Virus record (IMG/VR): IMGVR_UViG_3300010359_000001
Span: 2,345-66,344 of that record
DNA length: 64,000 nucleotides
DNA from: a virus
Lineage: Duplodnaviria > Caudoviricetes
Strand: one strand, 5' to 3'
Position numbers and translations under genes: made by a program. The notes under the pieces are model-generated. The model worked only from the letters and a program-made list of their open reading frames with translations. It was not told the origin of the DNA and did no database searches. Below, one piece after another: positions 5,624 through 57,485 of the stretch; position 1 is the first letter of the stretch; each line of letters starts with the position of its first letter.

Positions 5624-5971
5624 TTACCTGACTCCGATTCTCCTACTACAGGTAGGCCATGCTCCCCAACCCTGACTCCTAAGTACACGTTCAGCCACTA
5701 CTATCTGGTTCCTCTTCGACGCAAGGTCAGCTCTATGCGCGAACTGACCACGCCTAAATGAATCCCAGGTAGGATCATGAAACTGCAAACCGCCATAGTA
5801 GCCATTACCTGTATTGAGATGCCACCGGCCTCCGGACTCACACTGCGCTAATCTGTCCCAGGTATTAACTGGTACTGCATCGGCAGTACCTAGTCCGACT
5901 AGTATTAGTAGTAGGGAGGAAACTAAAGCAGTGAACAGTATTGAGAGTCGAGAGGACATGATTAATATCAC
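5624..5971 (-). CDS. rpf: Secreted resuscitation-promoting-factor (Rpf) type lytic transglycosylase
   Basis: Signal peptide ending ADA, then WDRLAQCESGGRWHLNTGNGYYGGLQF...TW...QI.VAERVL.SQGWGAWPTC, a complete Rpf domain with the catalytic Glu. Confidence 0.92.
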   Translation of the reverse strand: MILIMSSRLSILFTALVSSLLLILVGLGTADAVPVNTWDRLAQCESGGRWHLNTGNGYYGGLQFHDPTWDSFRRGQFAHRADLASKRNQIVVAERVLRSQGWGAWPTCSRRIGVR

Positions 5972-13873: not shown

Positions 13874-13942
13874 GCATAGGGTCCGATTTTCTATCGTTGG
13901 AGGGGTATTTAGTTGTGAAGGGTGGACTATTAGTTGCGTCTC
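13874..13942. repeat. 69-bp inverted repeat, left copy (partner 35404-35472)
   Basis: GCATAGGGTCCGATTTTC...AGTTGCGTCTC is the exact reverse complement of 35404-35472. Confidence 0.9.
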
Positions 13943-13964: not shown

Positions 13965-13979
13965 CTGTGAGAATCACAC
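13965..13979. promoter_or_regulatory. Putative operator CTGTGAGAnTCACAs, copy 1
   Basis: CTGTGAGAATCACAC, preceded by a degenerate copy GTAAGAATCACAC at 13949-13961. Confidence 0.55.
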
Positions 13980-14328: not shown

Positions 14329-14727
14329 TCACTGACTCCTGTGCCTACCGTAAGCGTTACCTAACTCCTTCATTAGGTCTTCGCTGCCGCCGTCTGCATC
14401 TGGGTGCAGTACCTTGCATAGTGCCCTGTATACACTCTTGACTCTATCTGGCCCAACTGCTGTGAATAGAGAATCGGCCCATCCCTGATTAGTACCACTA
14501 TTCGCTGGTCCGCGGTAGGATTGCCTATCCTCTACAATCAATACGGTATGTCCCATGGATTCTATTCGGCGTTTGAAGTCTGGAATGTCAACGACAAAAA
14601 TCGACCAGTACTTCTCGTCCGGATTCCATAGACGTCCAGGCATCTCACGGACTGCCTCTATTATCTGGCGGCTGAATGGAAATCTTACTTTAGCTTCCTC
14701 GCCCACCTTTACGATGGTAACCCTCAT
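14329..14727 (-). CDS. Protein with C-terminal J-domain (DnaJ-like)
   Basis: YRALCKVLHPDADGGSEDLMKELGNAY contains the HPD motif; the N-terminal domain has WNPDEKYW. Confidence 0.65.
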   Translation of the reverse strand: MRVTIVKVGEEAKVRFPFSRQIIEAVREMPGRLWNPDEKYWSIFVVDIPDFKRRIESMGHTVLIVEDRQSYRGPANSGTNQGWADSLFTAVGPDRVKSVYRALCKVLHPDADGGSEDLMKELGNAYGRHRSQ

Positions 14728-15332
14728 TGTCTATCACCAGGTGCTACTTTTGATCGCCGTTTTGCCCGTTGACGTTCGTTGGAATAGACATTTCTGATCG
14801 AGTCCTCGACAACCACCTTGACTAGATAGTACAACGTATCCTCACCCAACTGCTGTAGTCCATATTCCTCGATGAGTCCAACCATGACAGTTACCATAAA
14901 ATCGGTAATTCCTTCAATGGTTTCATCGTCAGGATTCTGTGGGTCGAACGCTGGCAGGCCAGATGCCGTGTCCTCTTTAGATAGAATACGGCCGCACTCG
15001 ATAGCTTTGCTTAGTGTCTGCTTTGCCTTTCCCAGTACGAGCCTATGACGTTCGATAGCATCCAATACGGTAGTCAATTGCTTGACCGAATCGGCCATTA
15101 CCTTTGCTGCCTGTGGTTTGGGCATGTCACGTACGGGTGTCTGTAGCGTGCCATCCCCCACGGCGGCTATAAAACACTCCAGATATAATCTGGACGCTCC
15201 ACTCTGACCAGTCTCTACCCGCGCGACGTGCTGTCGGCTGAACCCTGTACGCTTGCCGATCTCTATTTGACTTAGCCCGGCCTCCTCCCGTTTTCGCAGG
15301 TAATCTGCCGCCGTTAGCTCTGTTGAGTCCAC
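14724..15332 (-). CDS. XRE-family HTH regulator (repressor-like)
   Basis: LRKREEAGLSQIEIGKRTGFSRQHVARVETG; GTG 15332 follows a GAGG RBS (the ORF extends to 15404). Confidence 0.75.
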   Translation of the reverse strand: MDSTELTAADYLRKREEAGLSQIEIGKRTGFSRQHVARVETGQSGASRLYLECFIAAVGDGTLQTPVRDMPKPQAAKVMADSVKQLTTVLDAIERHRLVLGKAKQTLSKAIECGRILSKEDTASGLPAFDPQNPDDETIEGITDFMVTVMVGLIEEYGLQQLGEDTLYYLVKVVVEDSIRNVYSNERQRAKRRSKVAPGDRQ

Positions 15333-17619: not shown

Positions 17620-19083
17620 ATGGATACAATCGGCGGGATAGAACTTCGTCCGTATCAGGAGAGAGACATTAGCAGGTTCATGGATGAGCCTGGGTGTCTA
17701 GTGGGGTATGGCAAGCGTGGCGGTAAGAGTATCACTGCCCTTGCACTGACCATGCGACGTATGGAAACTGTCGGGTCCGGGCCGATATTGATCGTAGCCG
17801 ACGTAGATACACAGTTTCATCGAGATTTGCGTAAACTCGGATATCCATTGGGCTCCATTATCGAGCACGGTGTGTCAAAGGAACGAGGATACGCAGCAAA
17901 ACGCGATGCGTGGCGCAGGGCAGTCAAGAACCCCAAGCATGGAGTTTTCTATCAGATCCATTGGTCAGCATTAATCCATGAGTTGGAATTGCTGCGGTCG
18001 GTTCGCTGGTTCACCATCATTGCCGATGAATTGCACGCTGCTAAGAATTGGCGGTCACAGCGCAGCAAGGCACTCAAACGGATACCGTGCCAGTACAAAA
18101 TCGGTCTGACGGCCGACCCTGACGATAATAAGCCTACTGATATATGGTCGCTGCTCCAATGGATACGACCGAGACAATACACCTCGTTTCACCGGTGGGC
18201 ACGTAAGTATGTCGAGGTCTATGAGGAGACCAACCGGAAGACTGGCAAGCGGTATTACGACTATGGCGAACCCATCAACGTCGATGAATTCAGGACAGAG
18301 ATCGCACCATTCTTTGTTACCATGACACTGAGCGATATTGATCCAGGCCAGCCTGACGATATATTCATCGAGCGCTTAGTCGACATGACCATTGAGCAGC
18401 AAGCAGCCTATGACCAGATGGTGCATATGCAACTGATGGAGCTGGGCGACAACATAGTGATGGCTGAATGGCCAATGACCAAAGATATGCGACTCCAGCA
18501 ATTAGCACAGGCAATGGGCCGTTCAGAGACTCGACTGGTATGGAGAACCGTCAACGAATTCGATGGTGATGGAAACAAAATCAAGGTCCGGAAACAGGTT
18601 GAGACGACTCGGGTAATCCAGACCGAGCCGTCACCCAAACTCGATGACCTTATGCACATATTGCAAACTTGGGACGTCGGTCCGATGATCCTATACTCGC
18701 AGTTCCCCGGGATGCTGGATCTAGTATATAAACGACTGAACGATGCAGGTATCCGGTATGCAAGCGTCCGGGATCGTAGCCAGATACCAGAGGCCGAGGC
18801 TGCATTTCAGGATGGTGCAGTAGACTTAATCATTGGCACCACGGGAATAATGAGCGAGAGCATTGAACTGAGCAGAGCACGGACAATAGGTTTCCTTGAC
18901 TGTCCGTGGAATCCCAGGGTCAGAGGTCAGGCAATTGGCCGTGCAAAGGAAGTAGGCAAGCGGGAACCAGTTACGGTCATTGATTGGCGTACACGAGGCA
19001 CGAGAGATATGGTGCGGCTGGATACCGCCAGGACTAAGCAGCAATGGAAGTCAGCATTGCTAGGCAACAGAGAGGCTATCTGA
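17620..19083 (+). CDS. SNF2-like superfamily 2 helicase
   Basis: ELRPYQ, GKRGGKS, IIADELHAAKN, IGLTADP, SPKLDDL and QAIGRA motifs. Confidence 0.85.
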   Translation: MDTIGGIELRPYQERDISRFMDEPGCLVGYGKRGGKSITALALTMRRMETVGSGPILIVADVDTQFHRDLRKLGYPLGSIIEHGVSKERGYAAKRDAWRRAVKNPKHGVFYQIHWSALIHELELLRSVRWFTIIADELHAAKNWRSQRSKALKRIPCQYKIGLTADPDDNKPTDIWSLLQWIRPRQYTSFHRWARKYVEVYEETNRKTGKRYYDYGEPINVDEFRTEIAPFFVTMTLSDIDPGQPDDIFIERLVDMTIEQQAAYDQMVHMQLMELGDNIVMAEWPMTKDMRLQQLAQAMGRSETRLVWRTVNEFDGDGNKIKVRKQVETTRVIQTEPSPKLDDLMHILQTWDVGPMILYSQFPGMLDLVYKRLNDAGIRYASVRDRSQIPEAEAAFQDGAVDLIIGTTGIMSESIELSRARTIGFLDCPWNPRVRGQAIGRAKEVGKREPVTVIDWRTRGTRDMVRLDTARTKQQWKSALLGNREAI

Positions 19084-19433
19084 TGGCTGGTCAGAGAATT
19101 CTCTTCATGGTACCGGTCGGTGCAATCGTGTTAACCACGACTGCGGAGGACACTGAGTGGCAGAACAGTGCGGCCTGCCGTGGACACAGCGACCCTGATA
19201 TCTGGTACTCGAATAGCCAAGGTGACAGGAAGATTGCCAAGCAATTCTGTAGTAGATGCCCTGTCGTCACGGAATGCCTAGAGTATGCACTGAAATACCG
19301 TGATCCGTGGGGATTATGGGGAGGACAGGGTCAGGTAGAGCGCAAGGCTAGAAAACGATCTTCGTTGGCCCGGGCGGCAACCGACGTTCACCCTGGGCAG
19401 ACAGCGGAAGTTGCAACTAGTCGCACCGAGTGA
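19083..19433 (+). CDS. whiB: WhiB-family transcription factor
   Basis: WQNSAAC...DPDIWY...AKQFCSRCPVVTECLEYAL...GLWGG. Confidence 0.9.
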   Translation: MAGQRILFMVPVGAIVLTTTAEDTEWQNSAACRGHSDPDIWYSNSQGDRKIAKQFCSRCPVVTECLEYALKYRDPWGLWGGQGQVERKARKRSSLARAATDVHPGQTAEVATSRTE

Positions 19434-35403: not shown

Positions 35404-35472
35404 GAGACGCAACTAATAGTCCACCCTTCACAACTAAATACCCCTCCAACGATAGAAAATCGGACCCTATGC
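35404..35472. repeat. 69-bp inverted repeat, right copy
   Basis: Exact reverse complement of 13874-13942. Confidence 0.9.
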
Positions 35473-35492
35473 TAGGTAGGGTCCGATTTTCT
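35454..35492. terminator. Bidirectional hairpin terminator between convergent genes
   Basis: AGAAAATCGGACCCTA / TAGGGTCCGATTTTCT stem. Confidence 0.7.
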
Positions 35493-35518: not shown

Positions 35519-36340
35519 CTATTGTGTCATACGGGACCTGACCATGTCTAGGGTTTCCTCTGGCGTGGCCGCATACTGAGATAGGATAGTCCACCGATTA
35601 TCTGCGTGAGCCACTTCATCCGGTTCATGAGTGAGAGATCCCCCATGTACTGTGTCGGCCCACAGAGTGTTAGGAAATTCGTCGAACTTCATGACTGTGA
35701 ACCCTGCATAGGATGGATGCGGGCCGGAACCAGTAGGAATGGCTCGCAGTACCAGTGACGGGTGAGTAGACTGGTGTTGAATGAATTCCAACTGACCTGG
35801 TACGGTTGCTGCCCTGTCAAGTGCGGCTTCGGTAATTATCACCGTGGTATATGGTGGATTGTCGAGGTCGAGGAAACGATGCTGCCGATCGATTCCAGCA
35901 AGTGTCAGCCGTTCGATTTCCTCACCAGTACTCCCCGACATTCTGTGCTGACGCATCATGTATTCTTTGTTCTGCCACAGTTTCGGGATTTGGTCGATTT
36001 GCAACCCATATGCTTCTGTAGCTTCTTTTTCTAGTTCATGTACTAGCATTACATGTGGGTGCAGTGTTGGATGATCCCGGACCAGACCGGCATCACCATT
36101 TGCCACTTGCTGTCGTAAATCCTCCATTCTTTGTGCCAACTCTGTTCGGTTGTAGGCGGTACTGACCAATCCGGTTAATTCCAGTCTACCAATCTTACGA
36201 GTACCGGATTCAATCATGAACAGTTTGGAAGTCGAGCACGTCAAGTACTTCTCGACTACCTGACGACCTTTCAATCCACAAGCCTCCCGCATCTGCCGAA
36301 GGCGTAATCCCAAGATCATTGACGCACCGGTTGCTTCCAC
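35519..36340 (-). CDS. XRE-family regulator with C-terminal DUF5753-like domain
   Basis: LGLRLRQMREACGL...SKLFMIESG, then LELEKEA..QIPKLWQ.EY..IITEAAL..FTVMKF pattern of the actinomycete XRE/DUF5753 family. Confidence 0.85.
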   Translation of the reverse strand: MEATGASMILGLRLRQMREACGLKGRQVVEKYLTCSTSKLFMIESGTRKIGRLELTGLVSTAYNRTELAQRMEDLRQQVANGDAGLVRDHPTLHPHVMLVHELEKEATEAYGLQIDQIPKLWQNKEYMMRQHRMSGSTGEEIERLTLAGIDRQHRFLDLDNPPYTTVIITEAALDRAATVPGQLEFIQHQSTHPSLVLRAIPTGSGPHPSYAGFTVMKFDEFPNTLWADTVHGGSLTHEPDEVAHADNRWTILSQYAATPEETLDMVRSRMTQ

Positions 36341-36394
36341 CGTACTGCCTCCAGTTGTATGTTTCGCATCCCCCTGTCATAGGTTACAGTAGAG

Positions 36395-36409
36395 CCTGTG
36401 AGAGTCACA
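36395..36409. promoter_or_regulatory. Putative operator, copy 2
   Basis: CTGTGAGAGTCACAC in the 108-bp divergent intergenic region. Confidence 0.55.
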
Positions 36410-36448
36410 CGGGTTATCACTGGATAGATTCACAGGGAAGGTAGGCCG

Positions 36449-38344
36449 ATGGCGAGTGCAGTGGGGAAGGCAACTGGTCCCAGCACCAATGGTATTGGTC
36501 CCGATACGACTGGTACGGCTAGCGGTAATAAGGGATCGTTGTTTGATACTGTGGGTACGGATAATAATGGCACTGCAAATACTGCAAACACTAGTGGAGT
36601 ACTAGGCGGCAAGCCTAATACAGATGGCAGCAAGGTCACTGCCATGAAATCCGATGGTATTAGCCCGCTGACTGCCCTAGGACCTATCATTGTAATCCTA
36701 TTGGTAGTCGGTGCTGTAATTCTGTGGCACGTTAACCACACAGCAGCCATCATCATCGGCCTAGTCGGACTGGTATTGCTGGCGATGTGGTTGCTGGGTC
36801 GTAGGAACAAAAATAGGCGAGCTAGGCACAATCAGCGTGGTACACACCGTGCACATAATCAGCATGGTGGGCCGCCGCACCTTAACCGCCAGTCATTTGG
36901 TGATCGGTGGAGAAGTCGTCGTGCGTCGAGGAACTTAAGTGGTGCACACGAGCCACGCAGCTGGCGCGGTGGTGGGTACGGTAATAGCTCACATGGCAAT
37001 CGTAATCCGTGGTGGCGCCGTGGTCGGCACAATCCACTGAACCATAATCGTAAGAATAGAGGCATGCGCGGTCCTGAGAGCAACGGACACGGTCAATCCC
37101 GGTATGGTGGGCAAGGCCGCACGGATGGACACGACAGAGGTCGTAGAGGAAGATTCTGGAACCCGTTTAGGCGTAGGCATCGGCACGGAGGTAATAGCGG
37201 TCACGGGCCGGACGGTCATGGCGGCTCGCGAGGTGGGCACGGTGGTAGGCGTAATAATGACAGCCATGGTGGTGGCAGATATCGTCCATGGCGGAATGGG
37301 GGGCATAATGATGGAAACGGTCACGGTGGTTACGGAGGTACGCACGGCGGTAGGGGTCATCACAGTAGGCCCGGCAGGAAACCGCGTAGGTGGTATGCCC
37401 CATGGCGTGGTCGTAGTAATCACGGTAGTAGTGGCAACCACTACAACGGTCACAGTGGGAGCGGCGGGTCAGGTGGAGGTCACGGTCACGGTCGACGTTT
37501 CGATAGAACTAGACGCTTATTCGGTCGGTTATGGAATTACCAGCACCACGATCCGGACGAACCACATGCCAACCGGAACAATAGCGAGTGGTATGACGAC
37601 CCGAACCGGCGCAGCCGCTATAGGGACTGGTGGAATATCAGACGGACCCGTAGCCAACGGGAAAACGTCGACTATGCAGGTTTCGCCGTAGGCGAGGACG
37701 GGACAGCAAATCCACGGTATAGCAAGTGGCGGGAATGGAGAAACGGAGCACGTGCGAGGAATTGGTACGGATTCTGGCCATGGGGTAGTAATGGCAGGCT
37801 CAGGGCAGAGGCAACCAGACTATATCCTGATGATGGACCGTCGACACCGAGTAGCACAGCCATCGGTAGGAATGTCACCAGTCTCGGCCCGAGCACGCAG
37901 CAATTCACCATCGACCCGGTCACATCGATTCCTAACACTAGTTCGGCGGTAGCAGTACCAGTAGATAAAAGAGGAGGAGCAGGAATGGCTCACTATGAGA
38001 CTGCCAATGGCATATACGGCGAACAACATGCAAGGGGGAACAACGGTAGCTCCGCTGTTCAGCGGTATAGTGGTCAGGCAGCACCGGCAGCTACCGGTAG
38101 GCCAGCAGCAGCATCGTACGTATACGGTGCTAGTGGAACACAGCGGTCAGGAATTCGCCACATGGGCCTGGCAATCAGGTTCCGGGCATGGGCGCGTGCT
38201 CTTATCAATGCCAATGATGGAGATATGACACCAGCAGCTGAACAATACCTGGCACGAGCGGCCTATTGCGATGCGGTGGCAGAGAATCGAGCGCAGTTGA
38301 CAGCGCAGCAAATGGGGGACGCTGCCAACGAGAGCGGACGTTAA
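36449..38344 (+). CDS. Membrane-anchored protein with long Gly/Arg/His/Asn/Trp low-complexity region
   Basis: Two TM helices at about aa 75-115, then about 350 aa of GHG/RGG/RW-rich sequence. Confidence 0.75.
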   Translation: MASAVGKATGPSTNGIGPDTTGTASGNKGSLFDTVGTDNNGTANTANTSGVLGGKPNTDGSKVTAMKSDGISPLTALGPIIVILLVVGAVILWHVNHTAAIIIGLVGLVLLAMWLLGRRNKNRRARHNQRGTHRAHNQHGGPPHLNRQSFGDRWRSRRASRNLSGAHEPRSWRGGGYGNSSHGNRNPWWRRGRHNPLNHNRKNRGMRGPESNGHGQSRYGGQGRTDGHDRGRRGRFWNPFRRRHRHGGNSGHGPDGHGGSRGGHGGRRNNDSHGGGRYRPWRNGGHNDGNGHGGYGGTHGGRGHHSRPGRKPRRWYAPWRGRSNHGSSGNHYNGHSGSGGSGGGHGHGRRFDRTRRLFGRLWNYQHHDPDEPHANRNNSEWYDDPNRRSRYRDWWNIRRTRSQRENVDYAGFAVGEDGTANPRYSKWREWRNGARARNWYGFWPWGSNGRLRAEATRLYPDDGPSTPSSTAIGRNVTSLGPSTQQFTIDPVTSIPNTSSAVAVPVDKRGGAGMAHYETANGIYGEQHARGNNGSSAVQRYSGQAAPAATGRPAAASYVYGASGTQRSGIRHMGLAIRFRAWARALINANDGDMTPAAEQYLARAAYCDAVAENRAQLTAQQMGDAANESGR

Positions 38345-38352
38345 GGGAGTGA

Positions 38353-38676
38353 GTGGCAATGTTAGGTTACATGTCCCCAGTTATGGTGCACGGCCGGATG
38401 CAAGTATTGGAGGGAGAGATCATAGAACTAGCCTTGCTAGAGGCTGGTTACGGAAACCGTGCATTGCCGTTGTTGGTACACGAACGGATTGCCAACCTAG
38501 CTAATGAACTAGCTGAGTTACGCAAAGTTCATGGTGCCATAATAGCCGAAGCTGAAAGGTTGGGTGTAAGCCTCGATCATCTCGAATGCAGCTCGCAGGC
38601 GGTCGGCTGGATGGATCTATCCAAAGGTACTACACGGTGTGGGCGTTGCGGCTGCCCGTGCGCTCCGACTCTATAG
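38353..38676 (+). CDS. Hypothetical protein
   Basis: 107 aa, GGAG RBS, C-terminal CGRCGC. Confidence 0.5.
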   Translation: MAMLGYMSPVMVHGRMQVLEGEIIELALLEAGYGNRALPLLVHERIANLANELAELRKVHGAIIAEAERLGVSLDHLECSSQAVGWMDLSKGTTRCGRCGCPCAPTL

Positions 38677-38683
38677 GAGGTAG

Positions 38684-39334
38684 GTGGCAGCGATGCAACC
38701 GATCACCATTAAGCTGGAAGACCCTAATGCCGCCAGTACTCCACAGGTAAGACACGGGCAACGCAATAATGCGCCTATGCCGTGGAAGCTGTTCTGGACA
38801 ATGTTTGGTGCATCGCTATCCATTGCTGGAGCAGTAATTCCCACCATGCTAGATGTAGTGTGGTGGAAGTCTGCTGGAGTAGTTGCAATTGTCAGCATTA
38901 TACTACTGTGCATTACCGGTTTCGTGGTTCGCACGGCCGATATGTTCAGTCTATTGCGTAGTAAGCAGCAGGATCGGATTACCCATTTCTGCATGCTGGC
39001 AATAAGCGCGTACACGGTGTGGACGCAAGTATATCTCATGCGTTCCGAGTGGTGGCCGTGGATGCTGACCGTATTGGTGGTACTCGGGATCGGTATCTAT
39101 TGGGGGTGCAAGGGAGTAGAGTATTGGATCAGCCATAGCAAGCCGATAGAAACTGAGGTAAAGGCAGCAGTCGATCCTATTGAGAACAGTGCAATGGTTG
39201 GCAAATTCCGACCAGTACTGAATAAGGCTGGATTCTCTCAGGTCAGGATCATTGGACATGAGACCGTGCGCGATGACCGGAGTCAGACAGCTGCTAATCA
39301 ATTCTTAGTGCAGGTACCCGCTAGCGGAAGGTAA
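38684..39334 (+). CDS. Membrane protein; probable N-terminal half of a TraB/FtsK-like translocase
   Basis: Four TM helices, then a soluble segment ending FLVQVPASGR that resembles the start of an FtsK alpha domain. Confidence 0.6.
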   Translation: MAAMQPITIKLEDPNAASTPQVRHGQRNNAPMPWKLFWTMFGASLSIAGAVIPTMLDVVWWKSAGVVAIVSIILLCITGFVVRTADMFSLLRSKQQDRITHFCMLAISAYTVWTQVYLMRSEWWPWMLTVLVVLGIGIYWGCKGVEYWISHSKPIETEVKAAVDPIENSAMVGKFRPVLNKAGFSQVRIIGHETVRDDRSQTAANQFLVQVPASGR

Positions 39335-39340
39335 GTTGCT

Positions 39341-39613
39341 ATGCCAAAACGTGTAGAGCAGTACGATGGATACACGATTTACACGCCTGGTACAGATTGT
39401 GATTGTGACGAGTGCCTGAGTTACGCACCGTCGGATGTATATGATCCACATACTCCAGATTGGGAGCCGATTGGCTCCCACCCTGGTATTTATGAGTGCA
39501 GTTGTGGTAATACGTTTGACGAATCATTGGACGCTGCTAAATGCGAATACGCTCACTATTTAGAGAGGTACGGGATACATGACACAATGTGTGATTGTGG
39601 GGAATGCCCGTAG
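39341..39613 (+). CDS. Cys-rich acidic microprotein inserted between the two translocase halves
   Basis: CDCDEC, CSCG and CDCGEC motifs, 90 aa. Confidence 0.55.
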   Translation: MPKRVEQYDGYTIYTPGTDCDCDECLSYAPSDVYDPHTPDWEPIGSHPGIYECSCGNTFDESLDAAKCEYAHYLERYGIHDTMCDCGECP

Positions 39614-39746
39614 GTTAAATAGGTAGCAGAAAATGTGGACAGATTCGGAGCAAGGTGTCACTATGTGGCAATGTGAGCATGCCTCTATGAGTACAACATA
39701 AAGCAGGGTGGATTGCCTTAGACATAGGTTGAGTGGGTGACGGGTA

Positions 39747-41303
39747 ATGGCTAAGTTCAGTTTTCCCACTGGCGACGCTGCAGAGCAGATTGCGACAGCG
39801 CTGTCAATTCTGAGCGGACAGCCTGTCAGTAAAGATCAGGTAGTCGTCGAGCCTACGGACGATGCTGGACGGTACCTCATCACTGTTTATGAGACTGCAG
39901 CAATTGCTGCCAAAGTTATTAAGTACATGGATGAGTATGGGTCAATCCCTACCACTATGGGCGAACTTTGCCCGGTAGGACACCGTACGAACCATAAACT
40001 ATGCAAGATGGATCTACGGCAGCACGGTCAGATTATTGGTGGGACTACCAGTGGTAAATCGTCGTTGATTCACATCATGCTGGCGCATGCTACACGGTGC
40101 ACTGATTGTTTTATTTGGATCGGTGGAGTGTGGAAGCTGTACGATTTCGTGATGGCATACGTTGAGCGCTACATCAATGTGTGTCACGATTGTGGAGTGA
40201 AGCATCTACCCCCCATCGATTGGATTGCACACGGGCAGCAAGATGTTTGCAACATGATGGCTGCATTCATGCAGATTGCTAAATATCGAATGAATCTTCG
40301 TAACAATCAGCGTGGTGGACTGCCTTGTGGAATTCTGGTACTCGATGAGGTTACATTCATCACAGATGATAAGTTCACCAAAGGGTACGTCAATGGCAAG
40401 CCAATGAATGCCAGCGACATGATAGCAGGCATCGCTAGGGGAACAGCGAGTGCAAAGCTTTACGAATGGCTGGCAACTCAGCACGATACGATGACGAATT
40501 TCGGCGACCAGGGTGCGACTACAATTTCGCAGATGATGTTCAGCTTTGTATTCGCTATTCGCAGCCAGGGTTCCGTTGGTCGGGTGTTGGACGATTATTC
40601 TCTACCCACTCCGCGTAAGCGTGGTGAGTGCTGGGCGGATCTGGGACTAGATAATCCGATTTTCAAGCTGCGTATTCCATATCCTCAAACTCCCGATATC
40701 GGTAAGCCGGTATTGCACGATGGCCCGAAACTAGACGAGATCATGTGGAATCGTCGACACATTCCACACGTAATGGACCCTGGTAGTGCTAATGCGGCAG
40801 GCGAGCACTATGCTAACCGGTTCAGAATGGTTGATGATGAATACATTGATTATCTGACTCGGGATGATGATGCACAAGGTATCGAGGATGGAATTAATCG
40901 GGCGACTGCTGGTGGCGTTCCATTGAATGGTGGCTACCTACCGGATCTGAGCATTGCCGAGGAACAGGAAGCGGAGCGAGAATTCTACAGACTGGTAAAT
41001 AGCAAGGCGTCGCAGAATGGCAATGGACTTCGCGAGGAATGGGAGAAGGGCAAAACCGATGAACGAGTCTCCTCTGTTCCCGTGCAGTATAAGAACAGAG
41101 CGGACAGAGTAATGGCTATTATTTTTACCAACGACATTGACGGGGGATCTCCAATGGGAAGGGGTGAAATAATCGACAAACTAGTTGGAATGGGAGACGA
41201 CGTAAAGAACCCTAGAGTCGTGAGTAATCTGCTCAACGATCTAGTGAATGCAGACCCGCCCAGGTTGGTGCGGACTGAGGATGACAAATACTACAGTCTG
41301 TGA
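39747..41303 (+). CDS. FtsK/SpoIIIE-family (TraB-like) DNA translocase ATPase
   Basis: HGQIIGGTTSGKS (Walker A), ILVLDEV (Walker B), ARG..SA..Y..LATQ and a C-terminal winged-helix-like segment (LNDLVNADPPRLVRTEDDKY). Confidence 0.8.
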   Translation: MAKFSFPTGDAAEQIATALSILSGQPVSKDQVVVEPTDDAGRYLITVYETAAIAAKVIKYMDEYGSIPTTMGELCPVGHRTNHKLCKMDLRQHGQIIGGTTSGKSSLIHIMLAHATRCTDCFIWIGGVWKLYDFVMAYVERYINVCHDCGVKHLPPIDWIAHGQQDVCNMMAAFMQIAKYRMNLRNNQRGGLPCGILVLDEVTFITDDKFTKGYVNGKPMNASDMIAGIARGTASAKLYEWLATQHDTMTNFGDQGATTISQMMFSFVFAIRSQGSVGRVLDDYSLPTPRKRGECWADLGLDNPIFKLRIPYPQTPDIGKPVLHDGPKLDEIMWNRRHIPHVMDPGSANAAGEHYANRFRMVDDEYIDYLTRDDDAQGIEDGINRATAGGVPLNGGYLPDLSIAEEQEAEREFYRLVNSKASQNGNGLREEWEKGKTDERVSSVPVQYKNRADRVMAIIFTNDIDGGSPMGRGEIIDKLVGMGDDVKNPRVVSNLLNDLVNADPPRLVRTEDDKYYSL

Positions 41304-41313
41304 TATTCGATCA

Positions 41314-41428
41314 GGTCATGTTCATGTGGTCACGTGACCAGGGACAGGGGGGTCATGTGACCAGAGGCCCGGCACGCAGGGAGTACCGGGGGGAGTGCAG
41401 GTCACGTGACCAGGTGACCGTGACCTGA
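41314..41428. repeat. Cluster of GGTCAYGTGACC palindromes and GTGACC repeats (clt-like)
   Basis: Palindromes at 41328, 41351 and 41400; five GTGACC copies in about 100 bp just after the ATPase stop. Confidence 0.75.
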
Positions 41429-41432
41429 TCGT

Positions 41433-42074
41433 TTGTCTGGACGATCGCGGAGAGGAACGAGGGTAATGGGAGAGATCGAGATCGAGGATGGGAGCGCTGT
41501 ACGCCTGCTGGCCGCGTGGGATGCCGAGATTGAGAGTATGAATCTTGCACTCGGTCGGCTGCGCATGGCGCTGGAGACTTCGGGTAATGATACTGAATTG
41601 CACGAGGACAATCAGGCAGAGGCCAATGCAGTTGGCTACCGATGGCGTGCATACCGCGAGGCCCGTCCAGAGCTGGCGCGACTGTACCGCGAGTACAGCC
41701 ACTCGATGGCCATCGAGCTGAGGCAGCGCAAGGCATCTGTACGCAGTGCTGATAGGGCAACCGGCCTGGCGGTGTGGTGCGGAATTCTCGGGACCGTGCT
41801 GGTACTGGCTGGACTCGGCATGCACCTGTGGTGGTGGGTCGTACTGGCGGGGATTTTGCTGTGGGTCGGGTGCGGAGTGGCCGTCATGATTTCTCTCAGT
41901 GCTGGCCGGTCAGCTCCGGATGCCGGGAGAGCTATGCACTTGACAGTGCGTATCGACACGATCGAGCGTGCCTGTGAGGGTTGCTGGACGCTGGAAGGCC
42001 TCGATGCCGTGCGGCGGCTGATCGGGCCTCAGCAGGCAGCTACCGGCACGGAGCTGGTACGCCCAACACGCTGA
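41433..42074 (+). CDS. Coiled-coil membrane protein (Spd-like candidate)
   Basis: Helical N-terminus and two TM helices; last gene of the transfer-like operon. Confidence 0.55.
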   Translation: MSGRSRRGTRVMGEIEIEDGSAVRLLAAWDAEIESMNLALGRLRMALETSGNDTELHEDNQAEANAVGYRWRAYREARPELARLYREYSHSMAIELRQRKASVRSADRATGLAVWCGILGTVLVLAGLGMHLWWWVVLAGILLWVGCGVAVMISLSAGRSAPDAGRAMHLTVRIDTIERACEGCWTLEGLDAVRRLIGPQQAATGTELVRPTR

Positions 42075-46017: not shown

Positions 46018-46989
46018 GTGGTCATCATGACCAATGCTCAGCCACTCGTCAGGGATCGGGTTGACGCAATGCGGACACTCGGTACGGATGTGAGCGGTAC
46101 TGACAAGGCATTCGATGCACTAGCCGACGCCGGTCTGGCAGGCTGGAAGGTTGATAAGCAACAGCTGCATTTCCCGGACGGAAAACCGAACAGCGGTGTT
46201 TACGGCCTCCGTAGAGGCAATGGCATGCCGCTCCACGGTATATCGGTGGGTAGTCGCTACCAGGTAATTCAGTATGAGCAGAATGCGGCTCTACTGGATG
46301 CCGTGCGGCAGGAGACCGATGGGGAATTCGATCGCGCTGGATCACTGCACGGTGGTACTCGCGCGTTTATTTCCATTGCTCTGGCCGATCCGGTAATACT
46401 CGGTGGCGGTGATCCGGTGCGTGGCTATATCGTCGCGTTCATGGGTCATGGCAATGTTGCGAACCGGTTCGCTCCGACTGCGGTACGTGTGTTTTGTGAG
46501 AACCAGGAATCGCACATCACTCGTGGAAACAAACACACCGTTACCATTCGGCACACCACTAAAGCCGAGGAACGGATGAAGATTGCCAGGCGCACTCTTA
46601 TTGAGAGCGTGGCAGCATTCCGTGAGCTGGCCGAAGAGGCCCAGAGGATGGCTAGTAAGCAGCTGACAGACGCGACATTTCAGGGCATCGTCGACCGACT
46701 GTACCCGAAGACGAAAGACAGCGGTCGGGCTGCAACGGAATATGATAACCGGATGCGTACCATGCGCTACCTGTTCAACGATTCGCCGACGAACGAAAAC
46801 ATCGCCGGTACCGTCTGGGGAGGTTTGCAGGCTGTTTACGAGTACATCGAATACCACTCGCGGGTACGTGGTGGCGATGGAACGGACCCTAATTACCTCC
46901 GGGCCGAGCGGTCACTGATCGGAGTATCTACTTCAACGGACCGTGACAGGGCATACTCAGCATTTACCGAGCTGCTGACTGCCGCGTGA
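46018..46989 (+). CDS. DUF932-family phage/plasmid protein
   Basis: SRYQVIQ, AGSLHGGTR.F, RVFCEN, IRHT and GTVWG motifs. Confidence 0.8.
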   Translation: MVIMTNAQPLVRDRVDAMRTLGTDVSGTDKAFDALADAGLAGWKVDKQQLHFPDGKPNSGVYGLRRGNGMPLHGISVGSRYQVIQYEQNAALLDAVRQETDGEFDRAGSLHGGTRAFISIALADPVILGGGDPVRGYIVAFMGHGNVANRFAPTAVRVFCENQESHITRGNKHTVTIRHTTKAEERMKIARRTLIESVAAFRELAEEAQRMASKQLTDATFQGIVDRLYPKTKDSGRAATEYDNRMRTMRYLFNDSPTNENIAGTVWGGLQAVYEYIEYHSRVRGGDGTDPNYLRAERSLIGVSTSTDRDRAYSAFTELLTAA

Positions 46990-50479: not shown

Positions 50480-50941
50480 ATGACAATCAAGAGACGCAAG
50501 CAAGCGCCCACCGTGGGTGATATCAGTGCCGATGCCGTGTTTCGGCATGCACCTGGTGGGCACATCGTTTACGGTACCTGGGTATTCAGGTCACGCGCTC
50601 CATTGGAGATAGTCCTACGGCTGAATGTTGGAAGGCGGGCATTCGTCGAATGGGTATTTGCTCGCAACAGCCTCGATGAAGCTATCGCGTTTCCCGGTCC
50701 GATTCACGGCACCGGTGACGTGAGAATGCAAGTGGACCCATTCGACGACTCTCTGTCTATTAATCTGAGGTCACCATCCGGTGGGTGCGTACTGCTTGGA
50801 TCTATGTCGGATGCCTATGATTTCCTAGCCTCCACCTGTGACATGATCCCCATCTGTGATAACGTTGACGAAACATGCAACATCTCCCACTGCCAGGAAC
50901 ATGAACTAATCTGGCAATGTGAGGAACAGATAGGAGATTAG
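50480..50941 (+). CDS. SsgA-like protein (SALP family, sporulation/cell-division regulator)
   Basis: PLEIVL...VEWVFAR..L......GTGDVRM.......I.LRSPSG..LL......FL..T...IP matches the SsgA/SsgB fold pattern. Confidence 0.8.
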   Translation: MTIKRRKQAPTVGDISADAVFRHAPGGHIVYGTWVFRSRAPLEIVLRLNVGRRAFVEWVFARNSLDEAIAFPGPIHGTGDVRMQVDPFDDSLSINLRSPSGGCVLLGSMSDAYDFLASTCDMIPICDNVDETCNISHCQEHELIWQCEEQIGD

Positions 50942-54207: not shown

Positions 54208-54597
54208 ATGACGCGGCATGAGGAAGAGGATGGAATGACGAGTGTCGTCGAATTATTTGCGGTTCAGAATAATGGCCCGGAGACAAGTGAGGCATTCGAT
54301 CTTTACGAAATCGAGGGACTAGAGCCCGGATACGTCTGCAAAGCATTCTGGCGACACGGTGCATTCAGTGGTGGAGTCTATGTCCGAGTAATCAATAATG
54401 TTACTTACTGGGTAGCTGTCTTCGAATGCAAGTGTGGGACATGGCGCACAACTAAGTACACTCCGAACACTGGGCAAAAGGTAGGCGGGCACCGGTACTG
54501 GCGTTCAAATAAGGCGGACTACCCAAAGGACCTCTCACAGGACGAGTGTATGGCACGAGTATTAGCAGCGATGCTAATCAAGGAACGTAGCACCTGA
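54208..54597 (+). CDS. Hypothetical protein
   Basis: CKAFWRH...CKCGTWR motif. Confidence 0.55.
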   Translation: MTRHEEEDGMTSVVELFAVQNNGPETSEAFDLYEIEGLEPGYVCKAFWRHGAFSGGVYVRVINNVTYWVAVFECKCGTWRTTKYTPNTGQKVGGHRYWRSNKADYPKDLSQDECMARVLAAMLIKERST

Positions 54598-54769
54598 CAT
54601 GTTGTCAGCATTACGCCAGTAGGTTATCACTGTCTATCATCAGTGCTAGGTGATGGGTGTCTGTGTATCGATTCTAGGCATGGAGTGTGATCTAATGGTG
54701 GTGCTAGTGGAGGCATACCACCGTTTGGCCTCTCACTAGCATCATGGGTCACCCAGACAGGCGAGATAT

Positions 54770-55655
54770 ATGGTAGGTGGCGTGGCGGTTATGGAAGTCA
54801 CTACACTAACCCAAGTACTCGATGCTGCCGACACAGTTACCACCAGTGGATTGCTACTACTGCTATTCGTTGCATGGATAAAGGGTTGGATAGTATCTCC
54901 ACGGGAAGTCAATGCCAAAGACGAATTGATAAAAACTGAAACTGAGACGATCACACGGCTAATCCAGGAACGTAACGACTGGCAACAGATAGCACTACAA
55001 GCAATGAACTTGGGAGAGCGTACAGTCACTGCATTAGGTAATAGGCGAGGCAACGCATGAGCATATGGCCATTCAGCAGGTTTGGCAAACAACAACAGCC
55101 AGCCACATGCGATAAGGGTACTTTGGTCAATCCCGGAGCTGACCCCCAAGTGCACGACACTGCAGTATCCGGTGCAATGGATCGCCTGAGAATATTAAAC
55201 GAATTCGTAAGTCTAATAGAGTCTGGCAAAGAGGCACCGCCACCGACCGAGGTGAACGAGCAATGATGCTCAGTAGAACCATAGCCATTACAGAACTGAT
55301 ATGGACAATTGTAGCTACACCCGGTCTATTAGTCTGGGTGTTACTACTCAGGTACATAATGTCGATCCACAGGACTGCGCGTAAGAACTACAACAGGTCG
55401 AACATGGTAGTGGCTAACGCTATGCTGGTGCTGGGAATAGCAGGCTTAGCGACTGAGATCGTGTTCGTGTCATGGGGCATATTTGGAATGACGCAACCGC
55501 AGGTAGTACAGAGAATCACTCCACTGGGTTGGGCTTTCACAATAGGCATTGTATTGATAGCTACACTCGCCACGGTCGTGGGTATTGTACTGCGTAGGGC
55601 AATAGCCATTGTATGGAAGTTAGCAACACAGAACAGAAATCATGGTGATAACTAA
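54770..55655 (+). CDS. Three coupled small membrane/coiled-coil genes (54770-55060, 55057-55266, 55263-55655)
   Basis: ATGA overlaps and TM helices; resemble the accessory membrane genes of actinophage lysis regions. Confidence 0.5.
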
Positions 55656-56440
55656 TGACAATGTGGATATATGATGAGACATGTTCACAACTACCAACCA
55701 ACTTTCATATCACTGACCCTGACCTCATGCACATGGTGAATCACATAGTGAGCAATTGGGGTCTGAGATCAACCATCACAGGCCATGCTTACGGTACGGC
55801 AGCGCTATTCAGGGAAAATGATTTCGTCGACCACATCACCGGGGAACTATATTACAGGCTCGCACAAAAGGCACGCGGCCGGATGGTCCTCGAATACAGT
55901 ATCAAGTGGTTCTATTCAACTGTCCATCATTTCCTGTTGCCAGCAAGTATCGAGCCTGACCTAGATGAATTCCTAGAGGTGACTGGAGACGTCAGAGCAT
56001 TCGCCCATAGTGTGCATTTATTGGCAACGTTCGCTGTCCAAATCAGAGCTGTGACTATTCTAGCGGTGCCACAACGTCGGCCAACGGGCACAAGGTCACA
56101 TGTATTCAATGATATGATGCAGGCTGCGGCACTTGGATTCAATGGCATGGCGCAGGCTGCGGCCAGACAGACCGATCGTATACAGGGATTGTTCGACACG
56201 ACAGGCGAGATACACAGCCTCACTGCAGTTCCCGAATCCGGTGCTAGTGTCACGCCTGAACAGATTAGGTCGCGGCTAATGGAAGTGGATAATCAGCCAC
56301 TACCTACGATAGCTGATGAACCAATGGAATCAGAGCACGGAGCGATGAGACACAGACCCAGTGATGGTGCATACCCACTCGACTTCAGTGCTATGATTGC
56401 TGGCATCGACGAACTTATCGGGGACGATTACGACGAATAG
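55655..56440 (+). CDS. Hypothetical protein
   Basis: 261 aa ORF ending at a hairpin. Confidence 0.5.
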   Translation: MTMWIYDETCSQLPTNFHITDPDLMHMVNHIVSNWGLRSTITGHAYGTAALFRENDFVDHITGELYYRLAQKARGRMVLEYSIKWFYSTVHHFLLPASIEPDLDEFLEVTGDVRAFAHSVHLLATFAVQIRAVTILAVPQRRPTGTRSHVFNDMMQAAALGFNGMAQAAARQTDRIQGLFDTTGEIHSLTAVPESGASVTPEQIRSRLMEVDNQPLPTIADEPMESEHGAMRHRPSDGAYPLDFSAMIAGIDELIGDDYDE

Positions 56441-56488
56441 GTGGGACCGCAGCCGACTGGTTGAGAATCAAATAGACTACGGTCCCAC
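56441..56488. terminator. Hairpin between convergent transcription units
   Basis: GTGGGACCG / CGGTCCCAC stem. Confidence 0.5.
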
Positions 56489-57468: not shown

Positions 57469-57485
57469 ACTGTGAGACTCACAGT
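57469..57485. promoter_or_regulatory. Putative operator, copy 3 (perfect palindrome)
   Basis: ACTGTGAGACTCACAGT between the divergent holin and endolysin genes. Confidence 0.6.

Follow-up and report, generated by a model that had tools for sequence, protein, structure and literature searches.

The subject of this report is a putative DNA-translocation module carried by a tailed phage (Duplodnaviria, Caudoviricetes) and located at positions 35519-42074 of the 64,000-nucleotide (nt) stretch of DNA that was analyzed, which will be called the window throughout. The window corresponds to bases 2345-66344 of a 66,344-bp IMG/VR record (IMGVR_UViG_3300010359_000001) that has terminal repeats, with 123 bp common to both record ends, and that carries a rating of 100% complete. 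A preliminary description of the window had assigned the module to the TraB/clt/Spd type of conjugation system known from actinomycete plasmids, and had suggested that it represents a new system by which a phage might move its genome between hyphae without virions. The parts on which that description was built, namely a divergent XRE-DUF5753 regulator, a row of membrane proteins, an ATPase, repeats, and a protein with two transmembrane (TM) helices, are all present where it placed them. The features of the module are as follows, with protein lengths in amino acids (aa).

35519-36340, minus strand: regulator with an XRE-type helix-turn-helix (HTH) and a DUF5753 domain, WhiJ-like class (PF19054, E 9e-27; HTH_31, E 3e-4; phrog_9908, E 7e-24)
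36341-36448: divergent control region of 108 nt, with the operator-like palindrome TGTGAGAGTCACA at 36397-36409
36449-38344, plus strand: 631-aa membrane protein, candidate Spd-like accessory factor (from the translation)
38353-38676, plus strand: 107-aa open reading frame (ORF) of uncertain status
38684-39334, plus strand: membrane anchor of 216 aa with four TM helices, the separated N-terminal domain of the translocase
39341-39613, plus strand: Cys-rich acidic microprotein of 90 aa, zinc-ribbon-like, between the anchor and motor genes (from the translation)
39747-41303, plus strand: FtsK/TraB-like motor of 518 aa, soluble, with alpha/beta domains from residue 1 to about 375, a disordered linker, and a predicted C-terminal winged HTH at 451-518
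41308-41431: imperfect palindrome of 124 nt, a clt-like cis element; it holds three GGTCAYGTGACC sites, further GTGACC half-sites, and central G-runs
41466-42074, plus strand: 202-aa coiled-coil protein with two C-terminal TM helices (ATG at 41466 after a GAGG-rich ribosome-binding site; alternative TTG start at 41433)

Intergenic gaps in the plus-strand row measure 6-8 nt, except for the 133 nt and about 160 nt that lie on either side of the ATPase gene.

The translocase and its detached membrane domain

The 518-aa protein contains a Walker A motif (GGTTSGKS) and a Walker B motif (ILVLDE), and all 45 sequences of a family alignment share the catalytic residues G103, K104, D200, and E201. Its divergence puts the family beyond the reach of the Pfam FtsK_SpoIIIE model, and some of its members, the fused relatives described below, have no Pfam match whatever. 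PHROG labels the protein FtsK/SpoIIIE-like (1e-7), scans with NCBIfam and PADLOC returned no meaningful match for the module, and the FtsK gamma domain (PF09397) has no match in the motor. A phmmer search of the PDB with the single sequence gave nothing useful; the profile of the 45-sequence family, searched against the same database, matched EccC (1.4e-5, 27 bits), FtsK (2.7e-4, 22.8 bits), and the winged helix of RPA32 (5e-3).

Structure prediction gives a clearer picture. The AlphaFold2 model of the motor has a mean predicted local distance difference test (pLDDT) score of 87.9, and Foldseek matches residues 1 to about 375 with the FtsK motor (2ius, 6t8b; E ~1e-12 over ~384 columns), with further matches to EccC (1e-12), to the conjugative coupling protein TcpA (7e-11), and to HerA. 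The C-terminus, residues 451-517/518, is modeled as helix-helix-helix-strand-strand with pLDDT values of 92-97. On these models the protein is placed in the FtsK/SpoIIIE-HerA superfamily of P-loop translocases and its C-terminus is assigned as a winged HTH, as in the TraB/Tra proteins that recognize clt, with DNA binding as the predicted property. AlphaFold2 and Foldseek thus agree with the initial assignment of this gene to an FtsK/SpoIIIE ATPase with a C-terminal winged helix.

Relatives of the motor were collected by an exhaustive search of 1.8 billion cluster representatives, which yielded 156 proteins of two classes: those of about 500 aa, aligning with the motor from end to end, and those of about 650-800 aa, to which the query aligns only from about residue 200. 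The extra portion of the longer class is accounted for by the gene two places upstream of the motor. The four-TM protein is colinear with the N-terminus of a fused relative of 688 aa (P0011; BLASTP E 7e-6), and a local jackhmmer search started with it reached the N-termini of all the fused relatives (E 1e-28 to 1e-56). Its alignment stops at a 'VQVPA' motif, just ahead of the 'AExIAIAL' motif at which the 518-aa protein starts. Because the four-TM gene matches the N-terminal domain of the fused relatives, the alignments identify it as the detached membrane domain of a protein of about 700 aa, and the translocase as one split over two genes. The anchor probably starts at Met32 (38777). In TraB and Tra proteins the membrane domain sits on the translocase polypeptide itself, a trait that is absent from the window and present in the fused relatives.

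The split form is not confined to this phage. It recurs in two close relatives (loci L006 and L007) and in two distant ones (L036 and L037, 33-37% BLASTP identity), where a gene of 189-190 aa stands in front of the motor gene, abutting it in L036 and overlapping it in L037. Since the same fission is found in close and distant loci alike, the comparison indicates that the split is an old, selected arrangement. The Cys-rich microprotein gene that separates anchor from motor in the window has its place held by Cys-rich ORFs of 55-56 aa in L006 (8474-8644) and L007 (9807-9974) and is absent from the distant split forms, and on this distribution the zinc-ribbon-like ORF appears as a later insertion in the lineage of the window.

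The synteny of the module is kept in relatives of 64-95 kb at 33-54% BLASTP identity. The doubt whether the module might be the product of a chimeric assembly is removed by the nearer of these, contigs of 64-66 kb with 49-54% BLASTP identity, in which it has the same position and gene order.

The repeat palindrome and the operon around it

The intergenic region behind the motor gene (41304-41432) contains GGTCAYGTGACC palindromes at 41328, 41351, and 41400, with no other copy in the window. A 130-nt stretch here has seven half-site hexamers; the genome averages 0.1, and the next-richest stretch has three. The repeats are located inside a 32-nt inverted repeat, and single-stranded DNA of the palindrome region folds with -37.6 kcal/mol (z = -6.1 relative to shuffled sequence).

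For comparison, the 250 nt 3' of the translocase stop codon were read in every related locus; a generic scan for repeat density was set aside, as it was swamped by coding low-complexity repeats in high-GC loci. Analogous palindromes follow the stop codon in 13 loci, which span phages and one plasmid (L005, L006, L007, L012, L014, L018, L019, L021, L022, L026, L027, L036, and L037). Their common build consists of an arm of short tandem repeats, a center of G-runs and C-runs, an inverted arm, and then the ribosome-binding site of the downstream gene. The repeat unit itself differs by lineage: GGTCAYGTGACC in the window, CTACACGTG in L006, GTACACCTACAC in L007, CACACGTG in L037, a GAACAAAC-type unit in L005, L021, L022, and L026, a CACTCA-type unit in L014, L019, and the Kutzneria plasmid locus L027, and TCATATGA or TTCACATGTGAA in L012 and L018. 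Constancy of position and build combined with a changing sequence is expected of a site that is read by the adjacent winged helix, and not of a simple terminator, and this pattern suggests that the palindrome is a clt-like site co-evolving with the protein encoded beside it.

Known clt loci have a comparable layout, being made of direct and/or inverted repeats that adjoin or overlap tra (PMC3583192). That of pWTY27 has 7-bp direct repeats and inverted repeats across the 3' end of traA, where TraA leaves its footprints; that of pIJ101 is an imperfect inverted repeat with GC/AAAC repeats; and that of pJV1 has nine 9-bp repeats together with inverted repeats (PMC3583192). Two other roles were considered for the palindrome of the window and rejected: a packaging site, because the terminal repeat and the terminase genes are about 30 kb or more distant, and a replication origin, because the replication genes lie at 17.6-30 kb.

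Regarding the regulator, orthologues occupy the equivalent position in L005, L006, L007, and L037; a DUF397 partner was not found beside the regulator of the window. The operator-like palindrome in the divergent control region belongs to a pattern, TGTGAGANTCACA, that occurs in the window only at 13966-13978 (early-control region), 36397-36409 (divergent promoter of the operon that encodes the translocase), and 57471-57483 (lysis region). Four pattern matches were counted (57471 on both strands), compared with a shuffle mean of 0.4, and none of 100 shuffles reached four. This distribution suggests that the module is wired into the phage's own program via a shared operator-like palindrome.

The remaining proteins of the row are less readily classified. 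The 631-aa protein has two TM helices (at about aa 74-117), a basic disordered stretch of about 300 aa (G 21%, R 19%, H 10%, N 10%), and a conserved C-terminal part; homologues exist in L006, L007, and L014, and Pfam, PHROG, and PADLOC contain no family matching it. Homologues of the 202-aa protein are found directly 3' of the translocase in L005, L006, L007, L014, L020, L022, L023, L025, and L027. A homologue search with this protein as query returned the query itself as the sole match, and its matches to models of SCO2097 and SepX are weak and driven by the TM helices. For the 107-aa ORF, no homologue was detected in any fetched locus, and no gene is called at its place in L006 or L007.

The family in phages and plasmids

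Homologues of the translocase are present on 13 IMG/VR viral contigs of 19-128 kb, and a profile search of genome contigs with a 12-sequence alignment found five loci. Nothing matched the module when 50,697 phage records were searched by megablast, and tblastn of the ATPase gave one phage record only, that of Saccharomonospora phage PIS 136, which encodes a distant family member, together with four weak plasmid matches. Among the viral contigs, L037 (95 kb) has the full module, including a divergent XRE-DUF5753/DUF397 pair, and L005 (55 kb) encodes an integrase, XRE-DUF5753 and DUF397 proteins, a DUF2637 protein, and large ORFs arranged like tail genes.

Two members lie in contexts outside phages. 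The 51-kb Kutzneria plasmid pKutB-C3 (L027) encodes a fused relative with a divergent GntR/UTRA regulator and a nearby Rep-like HTH_36/DUF2786 protein, and elsewhere it has genes for a Prim-Pol, ParA, a tyrosine recombinase, and a relaxase-like protein. Pfam searches for HK97-type capsid and portal proteins in five genomes matched the Kutzneria chromosome and not the plasmid, which is weak evidence of absence; a Pfam scan of pKutB-C3 was therefore added, and none of the 32 ORFs scanned belongs to a phage Pfam family. An Amycolatopsis locus with a family member adjoins ParB and ParA. Among the phage contexts, by contrast, is pAmyja1 of Amycolatopsis japonica (L028; NZ_CP008954.1), a 92.5-kb circular 'plasmid' with a distant fused member, annotated with tape-measure, tail tube, portal, terminase, and ParB-family proteins and a tyrosine recombinase (integrase); by appearance it is a phage-plasmid, and since its strain is cultured it could be used as an experimental model.

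The Kutzneria and Amycolatopsis genomes have one element-borne copy each, scoring 805-859 bits with the family profile, and their chromosomal frames of FtsK length and EccC length score 10-15 bits. On these scores the family is single-copy and element-borne, and capture of a host ftsK is excluded because the chromosomal frames lie so far below the element copies, which exceed 800 bits.

Four groups of known systems invite comparison. The first consists of TraB, Tra, and TraA of Streptomyces plasmids and of actinomycete integrative and conjugative elements (AICEs), exemplified by TraB of pSVH1, Tra of pIJ101, and TraA of pWTY27. Like the proteins studied here, they pair an FtsK-like motor with an N-terminal membrane domain and with a winged HTH at the C-terminus. 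Their loci likewise have a cis locus of short repeats beside the gene's 3' end, a regulator transcribed divergently, and an operon that includes genes for small membrane proteins. The window differs in that the membrane domain is a separate gene, a microprotein gene lies between the two parts, and the regulator is of the XRE-DUF5753 type; moreover, the replicon is a tailed phage that lacks an integrase and has replication genes of phage type, and for it transfer is what we propose.

The second group is formed by the FtsK-like translocases of cultured actinophages, i.e., the Woodruffvirus members YDN12, Geonosis, TP1604, and Xkcd426, and phage PIS 136, which resemble the phage of the window in being tailed actinomycete phages with plasmid-type translocases. 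Annotated as 'FtsK-like DNA translocase', the proteins of YDN12, Geonosis, TP1604, Xkcd426, and others share 43-46% identity with pIJ101 Tra across more than 80% of the length; in contrast to the window protein they are fused and of a different family, the pIJ101 type, and only PIS 136 matches the window protein at E <1e-5. In YDN12 (L035), no gene follows the pIJ101-Tra-like one (54424-56484), which stops some 44 bp short of the genome's right end. For Geonosis, the published account says of the FtsK-like gene only that it may serve replication (PMC11536984), and in the literature we found no description of a split form or of an adjacent co-varying site in these cultured actinophages.

The third group, pZL12 (phage ZL12) and pAmyja1, shares with the window the presence on one replicon of virion genes and an FtsK-like tra gene amid membrane-protein genes. 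Conjugal transfer of pZL12 is reported, in a secondary account, to need the main tra gene as well as two genes beside it (PMC3583192, citing Zhong et al. 2010), and pZL12 is thus an existing precedent for a 'conjugative phage'. It carries ParA and ParB (PMC4487206), and pAmyja1 is annotated with ParB-family proteins as well as a tyrosine recombinase, whereas the phage of the window has neither partition nor integration genes. The translocase of pZL12 is only distant kin (40 bits), and the sequence behind its gene showed no repeat palindrome.

Finally, the chromosomal FtsK/SpoIIIE proteins have the same motor fold and are likewise anchored in the membrane, with a winged helix at the C-terminus for reading short DNA motifs. 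They are unlike the phage motor in that the latter has neither a Pfam match to FtsK_gamma nor a long linker, and in that its sites are clustered at the gene and not spread over the replicon.

In view of these precedents, the claim of a new system was overstated: pIJ101-Tra homologues in cultured phages, the tra dependence of pZL12 transfer, and the suggestion of Thoma et al. 2015 that phage homologues of SpdB2 might help phage DNA to spread (PMC4447253) all came before. What is known already, therefore, is the occurrence of related translocase genes in cultured actinophages and the idea of a conjugative plasmid-phage. What is new is a small TraB-like family, invisible to Pfam and common to phages and plasmids, together with its split form, the conserved and lineage-specific palindrome beside the gene, and the occurrence of a TraB-like module in a phage whose complete genome is devoid of genes for integration or partition.

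The phage, its likely host, and the proposed role of the module

The genes of a tailed phage (an HK97-type capsid, a ClpP-like prohead protease, a portal, and a large terminase) lie on the minus strand at 6-12 kb, and a phage-type set of replication genes (a helicase, an exonuclease, a Sak4-like annealing protein, a primase, and a family-A DNA polymerase) lies on the plus strand at 17.6-30 kb. The GC content is about 51% across the window, and the closest cultured relative of the capsid is that of Streptomyces phage Dagobah (51% identity). Further features are listed here.

5624-5971: free-standing Rpf-type transglycosylase, directly behind the capsid gene (PF06737, E 1e-32)
19044-19433: WhiB (E 2.5e-17)
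46018-46989: DUF932 protein, plasmid- and ICE-associated (ICE, integrative and conjugative element), downstream of the module (E 9e-40)
50480-50941: SsgA-like protein (PF04686, E 1e-10)
near 57.7 kb: endolysin, amidase-type

In searches of the whole 66,344-bp record with Pfam models, integrases of the tyrosine and serine recombinase types (PF00589 and PF00239) and partition genes (ParB_N and CbiA/ParA) were without match, so the absence of an integrase and of ParAB noted earlier for the window holds for the complete genome. Phage-plasmids are recognized by ParAB and/or maintenance genes alongside the virion genes, and this complete genome has no such combination.

A few observations on the surroundings of the module may be recorded. 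L006 likewise encodes a DUF932 protein, and L007 has an antirestriction-type protein (ArdC-N/MPTase-PolyVal) at 14350-15243, downstream of its module. A perfect 69-bp inverted repeat (13874-13942 and 35404-35472), exact in its identity, flanks the 21.5-kb replication module; its right copy, which overlaps a perfect 16-nt hairpin (35454-35492), is found immediately beyond the XRE-DUF5753 gene on its 3' side. It could mark an invertible segment or a recombination scar.

The WhiB, SsgA-like, and Rpf-type genes constitute a toolkit of actinomycete development and cell-wall functions on a phage. SsgA-like proteins are not known outside morphologically complex actinomycetes, and a Pfam control search found the SsgA family in none of 14 reference genomes. 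Because the phage encodes SsgA-like, WhiB, and Rpf-like proteins, its host is probably a mycelial, septate, and sporulating actinomycete.

Our preferred reading, to which we give an even chance, is that the locus is a conserved phage-resident module for the translocation of double-stranded DNA, of the actinomycete TraB/clt type and in split form, by which phage genomes would be moved across cross-walls or between hyphae. Behind it stand the observed fold, the division of the translocase between two genes, conserved synteny, a co-varying cis element, and a fused relative on a plasmid; from them we infer DNA binding, the direction of pumping, and transfer itself. Under this reading, anchor (38684-39334) and motor (39747-41303) together would correspond to a single TraB-like protein, fused and some 700 aa long. 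The winged helix of the motor would recognize the palindrome behind its own gene (41308-41431) and so load a hexameric pump on the phage genome, with the 631-aa protein and the 202-aa two-TM protein acting as accessory, Spd-like factors. The XRE-DUF5753 regulator, along with the operator common to the early-control and lysis regions, would time expression. Driven by ATP, the pump would then move replicated double-stranded phage DNA through septal cross-walls into neighboring compartments, and possibly into contacting hyphae, and would give the phage a virion-independent route through its mycelial host. Such virion-independent transfer is plausible. The wider proposition, that non-integrating tailed phages as a class push their replicating genomes through cross-walls, and possibly into hyphae or prespores, by a self-encoded, clt-directed TraB-like pump that serves as a second, virion-free route, we advance tentatively and regard as somewhat doubtful.

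Several points weigh against the preferred reading. The motor scores 18.3 bits with the Pfam model PF01580 (FtsK_SpoIIIE), under its 24-bit gathering cut-off. Kinship to TraB and FtsK was graded by profile scores, as the alignment for a tree would be unreliable at 10-25 bits, and in this grading the kinship to pIJ101 Tra appears marginal: Tra has 14.6 bits with the family hidden Markov model, hhalign pairs it with the family at a probability of 89% (E 2e-6, 200 motor columns), and it is no closer than FtsK or EccC. No protein of the module matches a known Spd family in Pfam, NCBIfam, or PHROG, DUF2637 included. In place of the GntR-type repressor (KorA/TraR) that is divergent from tra in the plasmids, the window has an XRE-DUF5753 protein. 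Six loci (L010, L011, L020, and L023-25) have no intergenic space and no repeat element after the stop codon, and where the palindrome exists it could serve alternatively as a terminator or as an operator of the downstream gene. Moreover, the phage is known as a metagenomic sequence, and a lytic phage kills its compartment, so that a benefit of pumping DNA onward is assumed.

TraB proteins are very heterogeneous (PMC9513070), and with the same family model the FtsK-like proteins of Streptomyces plasmids score 66-80 bits, pZL12.71c 40, PIS 136 138, and pAmyja1 200. Homology cannot settle the identity of Spd proteins, because SpdA, SpdB, and KilB of pIJ101 are themselves without Pfam families. 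We call the module 'TraB-like' on account of its architecture, its cis site, and its plasmid context, and not of close sequence kinship. The original TraB/clt/Spd label thus stands in part: the TraB architecture, the adjacent repeats, and a plasmid relative with a GntR regulator speak for it, and the Spd component, the weak similarity to pIJ101 Tra, and the XRE-DUF5753 type of the regulator do not.

The alternative that survives best, although we judge it unlikely, is that the pump serves segregation into spores or compartments, moving phage genomes into prespores past sporulation septa that are closing, or averting their guillotining, and thereby allowing carriage in spores (pseudolysogeny). 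For this task, an FtsK-type motor that comes with a membrane anchor and a specific site on the phage genome would be equally suitable; the phage encodes both a SsgA-like sporulation-septation factor and WhiB, and, having neither integrase nor partition genes, it needs another way to persist. The closest non-phage context of the translocase, on the other hand, is a plasmid locus with the classical tra layout, in which GntR is divergent from the translocase gene, and no sporulation-specific regulatory signal was found.

A second alternative takes up a view already in print, in which phage ftsK, whiB, parB, and ssgA genes are cast as developmental manipulators (PMC10117723, PMC13587820): the FtsK-like protein would act on the host chromosome or divisome, and the palindrome, which is after all a strong intergenic hairpin with one terminator-like site overlapping its right arm, would be only a terminator or an operator for the downstream gene. 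A terminator, though, needs no arrays of short repeats in both arms, and most loci have no U-tract after the palindrome. That the repeat sequence varies by lineage with architecture and position kept, and that the motif is absent from the remaining phage genome, also argue in the opposite direction, and we consider this explanation improbable. A further one, that the module has some other membrane function, such as superinfection exclusion or defense, or is a functionless plasmid or AICE remnant, might appeal to its location among accessory genes between the replication and lysis regions and to other plasmid-type genes in these genomes (ArdC-N in L007, DUF932 in L006 and the window), but is very improbable, given the lack of a meaningful PADLOC match, the invariant catalytic residues, the synteny kept down to 33-37% BLASTP identity, and a module GC of 0.53 near that of the window (0.515), which speaks against both recent capture and decay.

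The FtsK-like genes of actinophages are routinely annotated and are usually cast as tools for manipulating host development. This locus and its relatives offer a concrete alternative, namely a translocase with its own co-evolving site, whose ancestry and layout are common to a plasmid transfer locus and whose two-gene form survives under evident selection. Should no transfer of the kind proposed take place, the palindrome and the split gene would still define a small and previously undescribed TraB-like family, rare enough to account for 156 of 1.8 billion clusters. If, instead, non-integrating phages do use such a virion-free route, one infection could exploit many compartments, resistance based on receptors as well as extracellular barriers would be bypassed, and the lineage-specific palindromes would be private 'addresses' that prevent cross-mobilization. 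A pump that moves phage DNA between compartments would, finally, change views of phage spread, plaque dynamics, and resistance in Streptomyces-like bacteria, would blur the boundary between conjugative elements and viruses, and would offer a sequence-addressable tool for the transfer of double-stranded DNA in actinomycetes.

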